Shown: piece by piece, positions 42,901-47,903 of the stretch | How the letters are laid out: each line of letters starts with the position of its first letter | How positions within the stretch are numbered: position 1 is the stretch's first letter | Assembly (NCBI RefSeq): GCF_045037415.1 | Contig: NZ_CP173438.1 | Direction: 5' to 3' (one strand) | DNA: 64,000 nucleotides | Source of the DNA: Escherichia coli | GTDB taxonomy: Bacteria; Pseudomonadota; Gammaproteobacteria; Enterobacterales; Enterobacteriaceae | Position numbers and translations under genes: made by a program | Notes under the pieces: generated by a model | Seen by the model: only the letters and a program-made list of their open reading frames with translations | What the model was told of the DNA's origin: nothing | The model's database searches: none

Positions 42901-43014
42901 ACGCACTCGGTTGCGATTGGCTCACATGGACACACCATCACCGTTAACGCTGCTGGTAACGCGGAAAACACCGTCAAAAACATCGCATTTAACTATATTG
43001 TGAGGCTTGCATGA
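39988..43014 (+). CDS. stf: side tail fibre protein Stf (Ala/Ser-rich repeat shaft, His-box C-terminus)
   Basis: 1008 aa; N-terminus like lambda Stf; long low-complexity A/S/T-rich shaft; C-terminus with HTHS/HAHT repeats ending [18 protein letters not shown] as in lambda Stf. Confidence 0.85.
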
Positions 43015-43913
43015 TTACGCTCATTCTTTCTGCACCAGTAACCGAAATGGCTGAAGCATTTAAGCGGGTATTTGCAAATGCAGATAATGTGAATATTGTC
43101 GGAAAGCCATTTGAAACAATCAGAGAATTTGACTGCATGGTAAGTGCGGCAAATAGTTTCGGCCTGATGGATGGCGGTGTTGATGCCGCCATTACCACAT
43201 TCTTCGGTTCTCAGCTACAGGCCCGCGTTCAGAATCATATTCTTCGTGAATATCTCGGCGAGCAGCCTGTAGGTTCTGCATTTGTTATTGAAACGGGGCA
43301 TAATTATCACCCCTGGCTGGTACATGCGCCAACAATGCGTGTTCCGTTGACAATTGACGGAACAGACGCTGTATATAACGCAACTTGGGCAGCTCTACTT
43401 GCTATCTTTCAGCACAATAAAAACGCAACGACAGACAGGAAAATAAAGACGGTGGTATTCCCTGCAATGGGAGCCGGATGTGGTCAGGTGCCGTTTGAAA
43501 GCGTTGCCCGGCAGATGAAGCAGGCATGGGATAACTTTAATAAAAAAACAGAATCAATTAACTGGGAATACGCACAATCCCGCCAGTCGGCAGTATTTGG
43601 CACATATGCATACTGTCCGGGTAATTCTGTTTGCCGTTATGCGGATACTAAATATATTGGATGCGGCGATTATCGGACGTATTGCTCACGCTCCGGGCAG
43701 GTCTGTATTAACCCTGAACATCAGGCTGATGATGTACTGATACAACATCAGGCTAATAACCGGTTTCGCCCTGGTTCGCATATACACCGGATTAATCCAG
43801 AAAATCCTGTAGGTAATGTCATCTCTGGCGCACATAGCCACGGAAGTAGCATCGTTATTGGTGCTCACACCCATACGCTCAATAAACAATATTCTGTCTC
43901 TGATATTAAGTAG
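43011..43913 (+). CDS. macro-domain protein with tail-fibre-like His-box C-terminus
   Basis: ATGA overlap with stf; residues ~40-190 carry macro-domain blocks ([51 protein letters not shown]) by comparison with recalled E. coli YmdB; last ~45 aa ([18 protein letters not shown]) resemble fibre tips. Confidence 0.55.
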
Positions 43914-43915
43914 AG

Positions 43916-44506
43916 GTGAACATGGATTTCAGAATGAGTGAACAACCACGGACCATAACAATTTATAATCTGCTGGCCGGAACTAATGAATTTATTGGTG
44001 AAGGTGACGCATACATTCCGCCTCATACAGGTCTGCCAGCAAACAGTACCGATATTGCACCGCCAGATATTCCGGCTGGTTTCGTGGCTGTTTTCAACAG
44101 TGATGAGTCATCGTGGCATCTCGTTGAAGATCATCGGGGTAAAACGGTTTATGACGTGGCTTCCGGCGACGCGTTATTTATTTCTGAACTCGGCTCATTA
44201 CCGGAAAATGTCACCTGGTTATCCCCGGAAGGGGAGTTTCAGAAGTGGAACGGCACAGCCTGGGTGAAGGATACGGAAGCAGAAAAACTGTTCCGGATCC
44301 GGGAGGCGGAAGAAACAAAAAACAGCCTGATGCAGGTAGCCAGTGAGCATATAGCGCCGCTTCAGGATGCTGTGGATCTGGAGATCGCAACGGAGAAAGA
44401 AACCTTGTTGCTGGAAGCCTGGAAAAAGTATCGGGTGTTGCTGAACCGTGTTGATACATCAACTGCACCTGATATTGAGTGGCCTGCGGTCCCTGTTATG
44501 GAGTAA
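43916..44506 (+). CDS. tfa: tail fibre assembly chaperone Tfa
   Basis: 196 aa; Tfa-like N-terminal [30 protein letters not shown] and conserved C-terminus. Confidence 0.85.
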
Positions 44507-44618
44507 TCGTTTTGTGATATGCCGCAGCAACTTGTCATGGCAGGATACTGCGGCTGATTTGTGAATTTAAATAGTGTGTTTATTGCTTTATATATAAAGG
44601 ATTTAATGGATTACATAT

Positions 44619-45995
44619 CTATGATATCCCTGAAATGTCCTCTTCAAGCTCTTTTACTGATTTCGCAATTTTAAATTTAAATTTTCTCTCTATTTCACTA
44701 TTGCTAAGTTTTTTTTCATTCTCTTTCCCTATCCACATAGAAACAATTTCTCGTTTCTGAGATATATGTAGATTGTCAAAGTTAGGTATGTATTTAAAAG
44801 TCTCCGCTCTACCCCTGCGGAGTTCATAGAAAGTTTTAATCAAAGACTTTGGTTTTATTTCTGATGAAAGGCCGAATCGGCGGATAAGATTATTGATCGT
44901 ATGATTAACAGCTCGAAGTTGAGCTGTTGACGTTATTTGTGAGAAGTACGATACCCATCCCAATCGTTTACCTTCAAACACACATCCCGTAATTCTAAGA
45001 TTTAGTTTCCACTGACAATATGCAACAGCTCGTTCTTTATCGTGCTTATTTTTAGCTTGTAGTAGAGCGTGTCTATATGCAGTAAAAATTTTTGCTAAGG
45101 ATGACTCAAATCTAAGAATGCTCTCATGTTTTATCAATAATTCTCGATTTTTTATGTGGTAGCCCAAAAAGTTGAAACTTTCATCCAAGCTGCCTACTTT
45201 GGATTTTGAGTTCTCTTCATTTAATGGATGTGGGTTTAAATTTAATGATTGAAGCTTATCAATGATATGAGATGCAATTTTTGTTGCTTGATCTTTTTGC
45301 GTTAAAATAAGAATGTCATCAACGTATCGCATGTACCATATGTCATGCATTTTATTGATTTCATTGTCGAAATCAGATAGTGATATTTCAGCTAAAATGT
45401 TTGATATTGCTAACCCCTGAGGTACTCCTCTGGTATTATTAGGGACACCTTTGCTTCCTGTACTTCCACTTACAGTAGGCACGATTAATGATGATGTTAT
45501 TAACTGCCTAATTTCTTTTTTTCTAATCTTATTTTTTATTGCATTAAATATCAATTTATGTTCAATTGAAGGATAGAAACTTTTGAGATCTATTTTTGCA
45601 TATTCAGCATATAGATCGCTGTTTAATGCATTTTTCAATAAGTCAATTACTGTATGTGGTAGTTTTAATCTGGAGTTAGGATATATTTCTGTAAGGCATT
45701 CACAGAGAGCCCTAAGGGTAATTCTGTCCCTGGCAGTTGGTATGGAAATCTGTCTGGGGATAGAGTTAGCCCCTTTAGATATTAATTTTTCTTTATATGC
45801 TGTAAATTTATAATTTCCACAATTAACCTTTTCAAAAATAAAAGTGATCTCATTCTTTATTGTTAAATCAAGTTTTGATGGACGAATCCGATCTATGCCA
45901 ATCGCTCCTGATTCTTTGATTTTTTCATTGTATACTTTTAGAAGGTTTTTTTTCGAGAATGACTTTTTAAAAACTCTGCTTGCATTCATAGTCAA
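44619..45995 (-). CDS. reverse transcriptase (defence-associated / retron-like type), with C-terminal extension
   Basis: 458 aa; RT blocks RQISIPTARDRITLRAL, YAKIDLKSFYPSIEH, GVPQGLAISNILAEISL, catalytic YVDD (YMRYVDDILILT); AT-rich codon usage. Confidence 0.8.
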   Translation of the reverse strand: MTMNASRVFKKSFSKKNLLKVYNEKIKESGAIGIDRIRPSKLDLTIKNEITFIFEKVNCGNYKFTAYKEKLISKGANSIPRQISIPTARDRITLRALCECLTEIYPNSRLKLPHTVIDLLKNALNSDLYAEYAKIDLKSFYPSIEHKLIFNAIKNKIRKKEIRQLITSSLIVPTVSGSTGSKGVPNNTRGVPQGLAISNILAEISLSDFDNEINKMHDIWYMRYVDDILILTQKDQATKIASHIIDKLQSLNLNPHPLNEENSKSKVGSLDESFNFLGYHIKNRELLIKHESILRFESSLAKIFTAYRHALLQAKNKHDKERAVAYCQWKLNLRITGCVFEGKRLGWVSYFSQITSTAQLRAVNHTINNLIRRFGLSSEIKPKSLIKTFYELRRGRAETFKYIPNFDNLHISQKREIVSMWIGKENEKKLSNSEIERKFKFKIAKSVKELEEDISGIS

Positions 45996-46518
45996 TCCAA
46001 AGACATATTAATGGGAGGATATAAAGGCCGACAGTAATAAACATTCGACGTAATATCCATAATTTAACAATTATTTTTTCTTTTTGTGTGGGGAGTCTAG
46101 TCGTAAGTCCAACTTGAGTTACCCTTGAAACTTTATCATCTATGTCACGATGATTCTCAACCTCATTGAGCAAATTAAAATATTTTTCTTTCTGTTCAAG
46201 AGTTAACTGTTGGCCGTTATTAATATCAAAATAGAGTCTCTGTAGTGCAATATAATTCCTTCTCATGGCTATTGCTCGACCACGATAATCTAGGTTAGAT
46301 ACGATCAGAGAAATACCCAGTAGAGCCACTGAAAGTATTGCCGCAACGATATCTGTATTATCTCCTAGAAATTTTGGAAATCGTAACGTTATAATTGAAA
46401 GTACCGCACTCAATATAGCATACCAAACGAGGATAAATTGAGAGTGTTTTTCAAGCCATTCTAGTCTATGGTGCGCTTGAATACGGGCTTTATATGTAAA
46501 CCAAATATTTTCATGCAT
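45967..46518 (-). CDS. small membrane protein (two adjacent TM helices, SLATT-like), putative effector
   Basis: 183 aa from MHENIW (AAGGA RBS 6 nt upstream); helices FILVWYAILSAVLSIITLRF and IVAAILSVALLGISLIVSNL; overlaps RT start by 29 nt. Confidence 0.55.
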   Translation of the reverse strand: MHENIWFTYKARIQAHHRLEWLEKHSQFILVWYAILSAVLSIITLRFPKFLGDNTDIVAAILSVALLGISLIVSNLDYRGRAIAMRRNYIALQRLYFDINNGQQLTLEQKEKYFNLLNEVENHRDIDDKVSRVTQVGLTTRLPTQKEKIIVKLWILRRMFITVGLYILPLICLWIDYECKQSF

Positions 46519-46538
46519 AAAATATCCTTTTAAAAAGC

Positions 46539-46673
46539 GGAAGGGGCAGGATATATTGGAACCGTTGAACATCCTGCTCGGCAGGATCAGTGAGCATAAG
46601 CTCAACAGTAAAATATTACTGTTCATTATCAGAGCCGCCCTTGCATACGCAAGAGGAAAAAACTGCCCCATCC
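46539..46673 (-). ncRNA. candidate structured non-coding RNA upstream of the membrane-protein/RT operon
   Basis: Imperfect 12-nt inverted repeat GGAAGGGGCAGG (46539-46550) / ACTGCCCCATCC (46662-46673) enclosing four perfect hairpins (46571-46587, 46592-46603, 46606-46621, 46640-46653); strand assigned by operon context only. Confidence 0.35.
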
Positions 46674-46762
46674 TTTTGAATTATTACAATTTAATGATCT
46701 TAAAGTCAATACAAGTGAATTGTGTCCAGAGATGATGAACTAAATCACTCGTCAGCAAATTC

Positions 46763-46982
46763 CTAGGTATCTTTCAGAGTGTCCTGAACAAAAATTTTAA
46801 CTGAATCTTTATCGGCGGTGCGTGTAACAGAAAGGTCATCATTGCTGGTGGCTTTTACGATCACCTCTACATCTTCATAACGCTTACCGGTGCGTCGGGT
46901 TAATTCTTCCTTCTAACGCATCCACAGCGCTGTTTGGCAGTTTAGTCATTTTCTCTTTGGCTATGCAGATCTCAATACGCAT
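46763..46982 (-). pseudogene. dinI-like (DinI/MsgA family) gene with +1 frameshift
   Basis: [25 protein letters not shown] then frame change to [27 protein letters not shown]; extra A in GGAAGAATT relative to an in-frame reading. Confidence 0.65.
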
Positions 46983-46996
46983 AAAAGTCCCTCTAC

Positions 46997-47041
46997 ACTG
47001 TGTTTGTATACAGTATCATTTTTAACTGTATGGATAAACAG
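46997..47041. promoter_or_regulatory. two LexA (SOS) boxes upstream of dinI-like gene
   Basis: CTGTGTTTGTATACAG (46997-47012) and CTGTATGGATAAACAG (47026-47041), both CTGT-N8-ACAG. Confidence 0.6.
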
Positions 47042-47236
47042 TGTCAAGGGTGAAGGAAAGTGATTTTTTGGGGCATGCATGGGGCAAAAATATTTGTTGT
47101 GGGGCATTTTGGGGCATGATTGGAACACTTTGTTACATATGAACTTTGCCGATTTTTATATGACATGGAAATACAACGCTTTGATTCTTCTAAATAAAAA
47201 ACATGCTCTTGGGCGTTCTTTAGTGATTTTTAAAAA

Positions 47237-47340
47237 TTCCGTATCACGCAGTTAAAGTGGCGGGCATACTCTTCAAGGCTGGTGATCCCCAACCGCACCC
47301 ATTTAGGATGCGACCATTGTGGCAAACCGATGTAAATCAT
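47237..47340 (-). pseudogene. yecE: yecE 5' fragment truncated by prophage insertion (att junction ~47240)
   Basis: Minus-strand translation [32 protein letters not shown] matches E. coli YecE N-terminus, then diverges to an immediate stop. Confidence 0.75.
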
Positions 47341-47903
47341 AACGCGTGGAGGATCTCTTCAACGCTACGCACACGGGCGATGCGCGGGTAGATATGATTA
47401 ATGCTGTTATTGTGCTGCTCGGCGCTAGCGGCGCTACAGGCATCTTCGGCAATCACCAGATTAAAACCGAGTTCCCAGGCATTGCGGGCGGTGGATTCAA
47501 CACCGATATTGGTCGAGATCCCACATAACACTATTGTATCGATACCCCGGCGGCGCAACTGCAATTCCAGATCCGTACCGTAAAACGCACCCCATTGACG
47601 TTTGATGATTTCGATATCGCTGTCGGTTGCACCTAATGCTACAGGATGTTGCCACCAATTTTCGGGCAACACTTTAGCGGGGGAAGGGGCATCAACCGGC
47701 TGTTTTAATGCTTCAGCATAATCGGCAGACCAGCCAACACGCACCAGAAACACGGGCTGACCGCTCGCGCGAAATTTCGCCGCCAGCTTCCCGGCGCGAT
47801 TAACCACCTCATCGGCAGTATGTGGACCACCGGCAAAAGGCAAGATGCCTTCTTGTAAATCAATCACCACCAGCGCGGTGGTTTTAGCATTAAGTTCAAG
47901 CAT
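47337..47903 (-). CDS. yecD: isochorismatase-family hydrolase YecD
   Basis: 188-aa ORF recognised as E. coli YecD; stop overlaps yecE start (ATGA). Confidence 0.9.

Follow-up and report, generated by a model that had tools for sequence, protein, structure and literature searches.

We are highly confident, taking the two statements jointly, that the window (the 64,000-nucleotide stretch of Escherichia coli contig NZ_CP173438.1, assembly GCF_045037415.1, that was analysed) holds a complete DRT10 anti-phage system, of family UG17, SLATT-then-RT arrangement and subtype A of Pseudomonadota, and that a lambdoid prophage carries this cassette as a moron at its right end. DRT10 has already been published, and the present instance does not represent a new type of system. 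Current interest in DRT10 comes from its bacterial reverse transcriptase (RT), which carries out telomerase-style repeat addition, and from the proposal that it is an evolutionary relative of telomerase. The full tripartite cassette is recognisable from raw sequence. The template of the commonest E. coli allele, which is that of the window, differs from the template that has been studied, and this leads to a simple, testable prediction of the product.

The combination of a UG17 RT, a SLATT protein and a non-coding RNA (ncRNA) was described as DRT10 by Tang et al. 2025 (bioRxiv 10.1101/2025.10.16.682844, October 2025), with a 137-nt ncRNA, priming by S456 and the A-B-A' mechanism; defence was lost in YVAA, delta-SLATT and ncRNA mutants. 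DRT10 is also the subject of Sanchez-Nieto et al. 2026 (bioRxiv 10.64898/2026.04.29.721553, April 2026), who report subtypes, a role of SbcB and an SSB-like trigger. Between them the two preprints report phage defence for three E. coli homologues and for E3659, that is, for other alleles, and they conflict on the cDNA, which falls on infection in one and rises in the other. An earlier sequence-only reading of the window had proposed a defence system in which an RT is combined with a structured RNA and a small two-TM effector; the proposal holds, and the named type is DRT10.

Layout and Genomic Context

The cassette lies in an AT-rich block at ~44400-47200 with a GC content of 0.31-0.40, both flanks having 0.45-0.55, which agrees with the earlier description of an AT-richer block of ~2 kb at the right end of the prophage. 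The order on the minus strand is promoter, structured RNA, SLATT_5 gene and overlapping RT gene, and the features are as follows.

46680-46709, minus strand: putative sigma-70-like promoter of the ncRNA (consensus scan, 10/12 matches plus TG extension)
46537-46673, minus strand: DRT10 ncRNA, 137 nt (fold, covariation, covariance model, published numbering)
46673-46663 paired with 46549-46539, minus strand: basal stem SL1
46655-46638, minus strand: SL2
46623-46604, minus strand: SL3
46603-46592, minus strand: SL4
46587-46571, minus strand: SL5
46570-46550, minus strand: template loop
46555-46567, minus strand: A-B-A' template motif, RNA nt 107-119, the same positions as in the published Eco_3_DRT10
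45967-46518, minus strand: SLATT_5 membrane effector gene, 183 aa (RefSeq WP_000545005.1; profile matches)
44619-45989, minus strand: UG17 (DRT10) RT gene, 456 aa (RefSeq WP_029701056.1; PADLOC RT_UG17)
45326-45315, minus strand: RT YVDD, Y222-V-D-D225
44624-44622, minus strand: codon of RT Ser456, the C-terminal residue
44621-44619, minus strand: RT stop codon

A copy at ≥90% identity is present in 187 of 5,426 complete E. coli genomes, with a median of one copy per genome and a maximum of two, nearly all genomes having one. The cassette was at a prophage end in all loci inspected. Together with a dinI-like gene it makes up a 2.5-kb block that different lambdoid prophages, integrated at three chromosomal sites, have at their right end, and many unrelated isolates carry the allele of the window at 100% identity. 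The cassette was seen in prophages and chromosomes only; GenBank phage genomes (INPHARED) contained neither a DNA match to the RNA plus promoter nor any relative of the RT exceeding 25% identity. The prophage of the window is decaying, since its dinI-like neighbour gene is frameshifted, as is J in an identical strain record. The tfa gene contains a match to IS009 (Rfam 15, 44000-47400).

The Reverse Transcriptase

The RT matched the PADLOC profile RT_UG17 over its full length (all 429 profile positions, 1-429; 527 bits, 8.4e-159). The next-best model was Drt3a with 128 bits, and Drt9 scored 64 bits. Assignment to DRT9 (UG28) was rejected on the latter score and on the lack of a U-tract. The sequence-only reading had described an RT of 458 aa at 44619-45995. 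That open reading frame is present, but its TTG start at 45995 was rejected: RefSeq and 20 homologues begin at an ATG two codons further on (45989), which gives 456 aa. The RT and SLATT genes therefore overlap as described, by 23 nt rather than 29 nt.

The catalytic YVDD, already pointed out in that reading, and the C-terminal Ser456 show no variation among 21 homologues with identities as low as 59%, and Ser456 is the predicted priming residue. Pfam RVT_1 spans only residues 79-281 of the RT, leaving a C-terminal region of ~175 aa. The extension of ~170 aa noted earlier is thus real; the unknown role then attached to it gives way to a published one, the carriage of the priming serine. An AF2 model of the RT (pLDDT 85.9) could be matched over its full length to the folds of G2L4, SenDRT9 and group II intron RTs, and the predicted fold is closer to DRT9, G2L4 and group II intron RTs than to retron RTs. 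Searches of the PDB by sequence and by fold returned no DRT10 structure, the nearest entries being G2L4, SenDRT9 and group II intron RTs.

These matches bear on the possibility that the gene encodes a degenerate or domesticated group II intron RT/maturase, or another mobile-element RT, with no role in defence and with the neighbouring gene and the hairpins incidental. TIGR04416 does match the RT (1.4e-40), group II intron and G2L4 RTs are among the best PDB sequence and fold matches, and a faint GIIM match was seen (E = 0.13). However, the TIGR04416 score of 139.5 bits is far under the curated cut-off of 300, so that the grouping with group II introns which the sequence-only reading had named as counting against it was not found. 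Rfam detected no intron RNA domains in 44000-47400, and the occurrence of about one copy per genome, at prophage ends in the loci inspected, is not intron-like. Moreover, the RT gene overlaps the SLATT gene, and RT, SLATT gene and covarying RNA are co-conserved across bacterial orders. We give this explanation virtually no chance of being correct and retain the assignment to DRT10.

The SLATT Membrane Protein

The 183-aa protein matched PADLOC RTasSLATT (2.8e-57), NCBIfam SLATT_5 (133.6 bits, cut-off 60) and Pfam SLATT_5 (2.7e-28). Hydropathy analysis gave the two adjacent TM helices (~28-48 and ~56-76) that had been recognised before, and a third hydrophobic segment near the C terminus (~153-175) that had gone unmentioned. 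Of 40 homologous loci, nearly all preserve the SLATT-then-RT order. A 234-aa in-frame ORF that extends the SLATT gene 5' through the RNA was rejected as coding because its 5' portion lacks conservation at the protein level and covaries in the manner of an RNA.

Promoter and Non-coding RNA

The putative promoter at 46709-46680 consists of TTGACT, an 18-nt spacing and a TG-extended AATAAT, the -10 hexamer ending 7 nt 5' of the predicted RNA start. The region is without variation across five E. coli alleles and probably serves as the promoter of the ncRNA.

The fold of the RNA comprises a basal stem of 10 pairs, interrupted by one mismatch, and four perfect hairpins of 7, 8, 4 and 7 bp, corresponding to the imperfect bounding repeat and four perfect hairpins observed previously. 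Its folding energy of -54.2 kcal/mol (z = -5.67; 0/200 shuffles as stable) is far beyond chance. Additional pairs between template loop and junction in the minimum-energy structure were disregarded because they are absent from the centroid and consensus structures. In an alignment of 16 homologues, compensatory changes occur at 17 of 35 consensus pairs and support all five helices; consensus pairing is found in 96.8% of cells, as against ~50% in slid controls. The covariance model built for this RNA (R1) has one match in the whole window, at the ncRNA (117.9 bits), and also matches loci outside the training set, 5' of SLATT genes, in Acidovorax, Variovorax, Paraburkholderia and Burkholderia. 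Differences between homologues in this region include compensatory base changes and indels whose lengths are not divisible by three. The segment is therefore a conserved structured RNA and not coding sequence, as the sequence-only reading had suggested; its bounds, formerly 46539-46673 (135 nt), become 46537-46673 (137 nt) by the covariance model and the published numbering. Rfam 15, searched in E-value mode over 44000-47400, had no family matching the RNA, IS009 being the sole gathering-level match, and the DRT10 ncRNA is thus without a family in Rfam 15.

The RNA also bears on a second alternative, in which it would be the msr-msd of an Ec48-like retron, the RT would make branched msDNA from a guanosine 2'-OH and the two-TM protein would be the effector. 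The three-part layout is superficially similar, some homologues are named 'retron-type reverse transcriptase' in databases, and retron RTs occur among the weaker fold matches. Against this, the effector gene separates the RNA from the RT, the RNA comprises four short hairpins without a long msd stem (whose absence had been remarked on earlier), and its region has no match to an Rfam family, retron or other. At the level of the protein, NCBIfam retron_St85 scored 62.9 bits against a cut-off of 235, UG17 scored 527 bits, no retron model was among the best 25 PADLOC matches of the RT, and the invariant C-terminal serine fits protein priming. A retron is extremely improbable. Of the earlier likening to 'retron-type and other' defence RT systems, the second part stands and the retron comparison is an analogy only.

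Template Motif and Predicted Repeat Product

The template loop of the DRT10 RNA contains the motif A = CAAC (nt 107-110), B = GGUUC (nt 111-115) and A' = CAAU (nt 116-119), where Eco_3_DRT10 has CAAU-GAUUC-CAAU. The positions coincide exactly with the Eco_3_DRT10 numbering of U110, C116, A117 and U119. From the template CAAC-GGUUC-CAAU, the cDNA of the window allele is predicted to consist of tandem 5'-GAACCGTTG-3' repeats. A direct repeat of at least 4 nt is present in 24 of 26 distinct homologous loops (8.3 ± 2.3 in shuffles), and A-B-A' is kept as a repeat while its letters vary by lineage (CAA, UAA, AUAU, UACU).

In the sampled sequences of this E. coli lineage there are only two template alleles, CAACGGUUC and CAAUGAUUC. 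The former, that of the window, is the commoner: of the 17 loci fitting the flanking pattern, 14 have it and the other 3 have the tested allele CAAUGAUUC. The published template, CAAUGAUUC-CAAU, is carried by the E. coli allele L004. The two alleles differ by two coupled changes, and CAACGGUUC also creates a second repeat in the loop, GUUC..GUUC, with a period of 8. This repeat could provide an alternative period-8 register, CGTTGAAC, if the 5' boundary were leaky.

A and A' of the window differ at their fourth base (C and U, respectively); three of four bases match, and a G-U wobble is possible at the fourth. This mismatch, or the template allele itself, might block processive repeat addition and leave a DRT10-family locus that is inactive or altered here, a reading that could also draw on the decay of the prophage and on truncated RT copies of the same allele in other strains. 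We consider it very unlikely: both ORFs and the catalytic and priming residues are intact, CAACGGUUC is the commoner allele, 100% identity is kept in many unrelated isolates, and three bases of A-A' homology suffice, changes at position 4 being tolerated (Tang et al. 2025, bioRxiv 10.1101/2025.10.16.682844).

A functional natural polymorphism of the template, with alleles differing in specificity or in product (9-nt versus mixed 8/9-nt repeats), is a speculative idea that we think unlikely to be correct. Allele differences would matter if the sequence or periodicity of the repeat is recognised by the SLATT effector or by a phage counter-measure, and in that case a telomerase-like template would have been reprogrammed in nature.

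Proposed Mechanism

By homology with the close E. coli homologues, the 137-nt RNA would be made from its own promoter and then bound by the RT, and DNA synthesis would be primed by the hydroxyl of the C-terminal Ser456. The RT would copy the 9 nt C107-C115 and halt where hairpin SL5 marks the template boundary. The newly made DNA, ending in ..GTTG at its 3' end, could then unpair and re-anneal on the downstream CAAU through three Watson-Crick pairs and one G-U wobble. Repeated cycles would yield a long single-stranded (GAACCGTTG)n covalently joined to the RT. Defence would require the SLATT membrane protein as effector. Its activity is presumably controlled by how much repeat DNA is present or in what form, and this DNA may in turn be modulated by host exonuclease I (SbcB) and by SSB-like proteins of the phage. 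The presumed outcome is abortive infection.

Comparison with Known Systems

The closest counterpart is Eco_3_DRT10 of Tang et al. 2025. It shares with the window the order ncRNA, SLATT gene and overlapping RT gene, a 137-nt ncRNA with a basal stem, four hairpins and A-B-A' at nt 107-119, an RT of 456 aa with YVDD and a terminal Ser456, and an E. coli prophage context, in which an integrase adjoins some copies. The two differ in template, CAAUGAUUC there and CAACGGUUC here, and the repeat predicted here is therefore GAACCGTTG and not GAATCATTG as in Eco_3_DRT10. The accession of Eco_3_DRT10 was not found in the text of the Tang et al. supplement, the plasmid tables being outside it. We describe the window locus as a close allele of the tested system because the Eco_3_DRT10 template also occurs in an E. 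coli variant with 95% (RT) and 89% (SLATT) identity to the proteins of the window; the 137-nt RNAs have 7 differences. Table S1 of Tang et al. includes this 95% allele and also lists the identical SLATT protein and N-terminally truncated, identical copies of the RT, flagged as ncRNA-associated.

The UG17-A DRT10 of Escherichia sp. E3659 (bioRxiv 10.64898/2026.04.29.721553) has the same family and SLATT-then-RT arrangement, together with an independently expressed ncRNA, an essential basal stem, tandem-repeat cDNA and SbcB dependence; the last was noted earlier for a UG17 plus SLATT prophage locus of E. coli H120 (PMC9226505). It belongs to a different lineage, with an RT of ~445 aa and a SLATT protein of ~186 aa (published coordinates). 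Its genes share a single nucleotide whereas those of the window overlap by 23 nt, its ncRNA is of 143 nt with six predicted stem-loops as against 137 nt, and its repeat is of 7 nt (AGTAATA), with a pair of ACU triplets flanking the template.

DRT9 (UG28) and DRT3 (UG3+UG8) likewise pair class 2 UG RTs with a structured ncRNA whose short template is copied iteratively. DRT9 is protein-primed, and SenDRT9 is among the top full-length fold matches of the window RT, but DRT9 makes poly-dA from a poly-U template whereas the template loop of the window has no U-tract. DRT3 differs in having two RTs and an ACACAC template. Retrons with two-TM effectors (Ec48-type) resemble DRT10 in that a small membrane effector accompanies an RT and its ncRNA in abortive-infection-type defence, and differ from it in RT clade, RNA architecture, gene order and their branched msDNA product.

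Telomerase (TERT plus telomerase RNA) offers an analogy in its short template, downstream alignment segment and repeat-addition processivity, and its structured 5' template-boundary element may be likened to SL5. Tang et al. place TERT near the class 2 UG RTs (bioRxiv 10.1101/2025.10.16.682844). Telomerase is primed by chromosome ends and serves genome maintenance, whereas DRT10 is protein-primed and serves defence.

Organization of the cassette

The feature at the prophage right end is real, and the system is DRT10, which is already published, its mechanism having been studied in close E. coli homologues. The sequence-only reading was right: a defence reverse transcriptase (RT) system, not a typical retron, in which the RT is accompanied by a structured RNA and a membrane effector. 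The components are as follows.

44619-46709, minus strand: whole feature
ATG 45989 to 44619, minus strand: RT gene, 456 aa, overlapping the upstream gene by 23 nt
45326-45315, minus strand: YVDD motif in the RT gene
45967-46518, minus strand: SLATT gene, 183 aa
46537-46673, minus strand: ncRNA, from fold and covariance model
Ending 7 nt upstream of 46673, minus strand: putative promoter-like site (TTGACT, 18 nt, TG-AATAAT)
46763-46982, minus strand: dinI-like gene, frameshifted in the window prophage
47013-46998 and 47041-47026: two putative LexA-box-like sites (CTG-N10-CAG) ahead of the dinI-like gene

The block has a GC content of 0.31-0.40 against 0.45-0.55 in the flanks, as expected of the AT-rich island originally noticed. 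The RT reading frame and its overlap with the upstream gene are both present, at 456 rather than 458 aa and 23 rather than 29 nt. A start at TTG 45995, giving the 458-aa frame, was rejected because RefSeq and all aligned homologues begin at ATG 45989. Fold and covariation confirm the structured RNA, with bounds of 46537-46673 instead of 46539-46673. A U-run follows its basal stem, just ahead of the SLATT ribosome-binding site.

Reverse transcriptase and SLATT protein

In a profile search against RT families, as proposed from the sequence alone, the RT matched the entire PADLOC RT_UG17 profile (8.4e-159, 527 bits); the runners-up were Drt3a (128 bits), generic RT and UG4. The RT fell far under the NCBIfam curated cut-offs for group II intron RT (139.5 bits, cut-off 300), Drt3a (112.7, 200), Drt2 (74.7, 390) and retron St85 (62.9, 235), the last bearing out that this is not a typical retron. 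Pfam RVT_1 spans only residues 79-281, and the RT therefore has a C-terminal region of ~175 aa, in agreement with the long extension first described. The last residue, Ser456, and the YVDD motif are invariant among 21 homologues with identity down to 59%. An AF2 model of the RT (mean pLDDT 85.9) had its top full-length fold matches in G2L4 RT, SenDRT9 RT and group II intron RTs, with retron RTs lower. Sequence and fold searches of the PDB copy found no DRT10 structure.

The 183-aa protein has the two adjacent hydrophobic helices reported earlier and a third hydrophobic segment close to the C-terminus. The SLATT-domain check proposed from the sequence alone was positive: the protein matched the PADLOC RT-associated SLATT model (2.8e-57), NCBIfam SLATT_5 (133.6 bits, cut-off 60) and Pfam SLATT_5.

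Structure and conservation of the ncRNA

The ncRNA folds as a 10-pair basal stem (SL1) with one mismatch around four perfect hairpins (SL2-SL5), with an energy of -54.2 kcal/mol (z = -5.67; none of 200 shuffles folded as well). In nearly all of 40 homologous loci, taken from representative genomes, an ORF ends where the RT begins, and the region 5' of SLATT could be aligned between Enterobacterales, Pseudomonas and one Rhodocyclales genome. The RNAalifold consensus comprises the basal stem and four hairpins, with compensatory double changes in 17 of its 35 pairs. Pairing is possible in 96.8% of alignment cells, compared with 50-55% when the 3' partners were slid by 1-3 columns in the same alignment; these control structures had 5-7 compensatory pairs against 17. 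On four of five measures, none of 500 shuffles matched the observed values. A covariance model built from the alignment gave a single match in the 64-kb window, at 46537-46673 on the minus strand (117.9 bits). Loci outside its training set also gave matches where the RNA was expected, in Acidovorax (1.7e-12), Variovorax (2.4e-9), and Paraburkholderia and Burkholderia (about 5e-8).

Distribution and prophage setting

A copy at least 90% identical over the whole 2.2 kb is carried by 187 of 5,426 complete E. coli genomes, always on the chromosome; 74 copies are at least 99% identical. In inspected loci the cassette follows tail-fibre or tail-fibre-assembly genes and precedes a dinI-like gene at a lambdoid prophage end. 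The carrier prophages are integrated at yecD/aspS (the window and an identical strain), dusA (beside the integrase) and prfC. The block common to otherwise different prophage ends, 44521-47048 (2.5 kb), consists of the DRT10 cassette and the dinI-like gene, which is intact in the dusA and prfC prophages. DinI is a RecA modulator. In the dusA prophage of E. coli K71-77 (locus L005, 5589-7430) the neighbour of the DRT10 block is rrrD, a truncated lysozyme gene, instead of tail genes; the cassette has thus persisted in a prophage remnant that has undergone heavy deletion.

The window prophage has other features of note. A 385-aa protein (12921-14078, minus strand) matches PADLOC NsnA (5.6e-46) and PD-T4-2_A (4.3e-27), and RefSeq names its homologue 'nucleoid-associated protein'. 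Its downstream 229-aa partner (within 12229-14078, minus strand) had no match, and the pair adjoins a cytosine methyltransferase gene (11220-12260, plus strand; MTase_II, 1.6e-87). Together these genes are probably a second defence moron of the same prophage. Between the tail fibre and tfa lies a 300-aa ORF (43011-43913, plus strand; phrog_2613, function unknown), annotated by RefSeq as a macro domain-containing protein, with GAHxH-type repeats at its C-terminus like those of the tail-fibre C-terminus; a macro domain inside a tail-fibre module is unusual. The tail-fibre assembly gene contains an Rfam IS009 match (44265-44463, plus strand; 218.5 bits, gathering score 117), a family that looks to be built on conserved prophage tfa sequence.

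Comparison with published DRT10 systems

Mestre et al. 2022 (PMC9226505) predicted that UG17 together with SLATT forms a defence system, and cite an RT and SLATT locus of E. coli H120 that renders sbcB essential. Tang et al. (bioRxiv 10.1101/2025.10.16.682844) gave the name DRT10 and reported anti-phage defence by three E. coli operons, requiring the RT active site, SLATT and the 137-nt ncRNA upstream of SLATT. According to the same work, the RT uses its own Ser456 as the primer for tandem-repeat single-stranded DNA, and the A-B-A' motif located in the loop that follows SL5 programmes repeat addition. Both the window's SLATT protein and its RT appear in their Table S1, the SLATT as an identical sequence and the RT as N-terminally truncated but otherwise identical copies; the table marks the ncRNA as present. 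Sanchez-Nieto et al. (bioRxiv 10.64898/2026.04.29.721553) defined subtypes A-C and described an Escherichia sp. homologue with an independently transcribed ncRNA, 7-nt repeats, SbcB control and an SSB-like phage trigger.

With nt 1 of the ncRNA at 46673, the loop after SL5 is G104-UUCAACGGUUCCAAUAUAUC, in which A is CAAC (nt 107-110), B is GGUUC (nt 111-115) and A' is CAAU (nt 116-119). These occupy exactly the positions published for the tested system Eco_3_DRT10 (U110, C116, A117, U119; Tang et al., bioRxiv 10.1101/2025.10.16.682844). The published template, CAAUGAUUC-CAAU, was found in one E. coli allele, that of strain MS20654 (locus L004), whose RT and SLATT are 95% and 89% identical to those of the window. 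The two ncRNAs differ at 7 of 137 positions, two of them within the template: position 110 is C in the window and U in MS20654, and position 112 is G and A, respectively. When any three bases were allowed in the middle of the flanking pattern, 17 loci matched: 14 with the window's template, three with the published one and none with another variant.

The predicted product of the window allele is (GAACCGTTG)n. After copying up to C107, the cDNA end GTTG would pair with CAAU through three Watson-Crick pairs and one G-U wobble. The repeat is retained across lineages with changed sequence (UCAA..UCAA, UUAA..UUAA, AUAU..AUAU, UACUU..UACUU), and a direct repeat of 4 nt or more is seen in 24 of 26 distinct loops, compared with 8.3 ± 2.3 after shuffling of the loops. 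In the window allele there is a further direct repeat, GUUC(AACG)GUUC (46570-46559, minus strand), whose period of 8 is a caveat to the period-9 reading; it overlaps the period-9 CAA..CAA repeat and does not occur in the published CAAUGAUUC allele.

Relative to the known systems this is no new kind; what is particular to the window copy is a natural template allele predicting a different 9-nt repeat, a modest, testable point.
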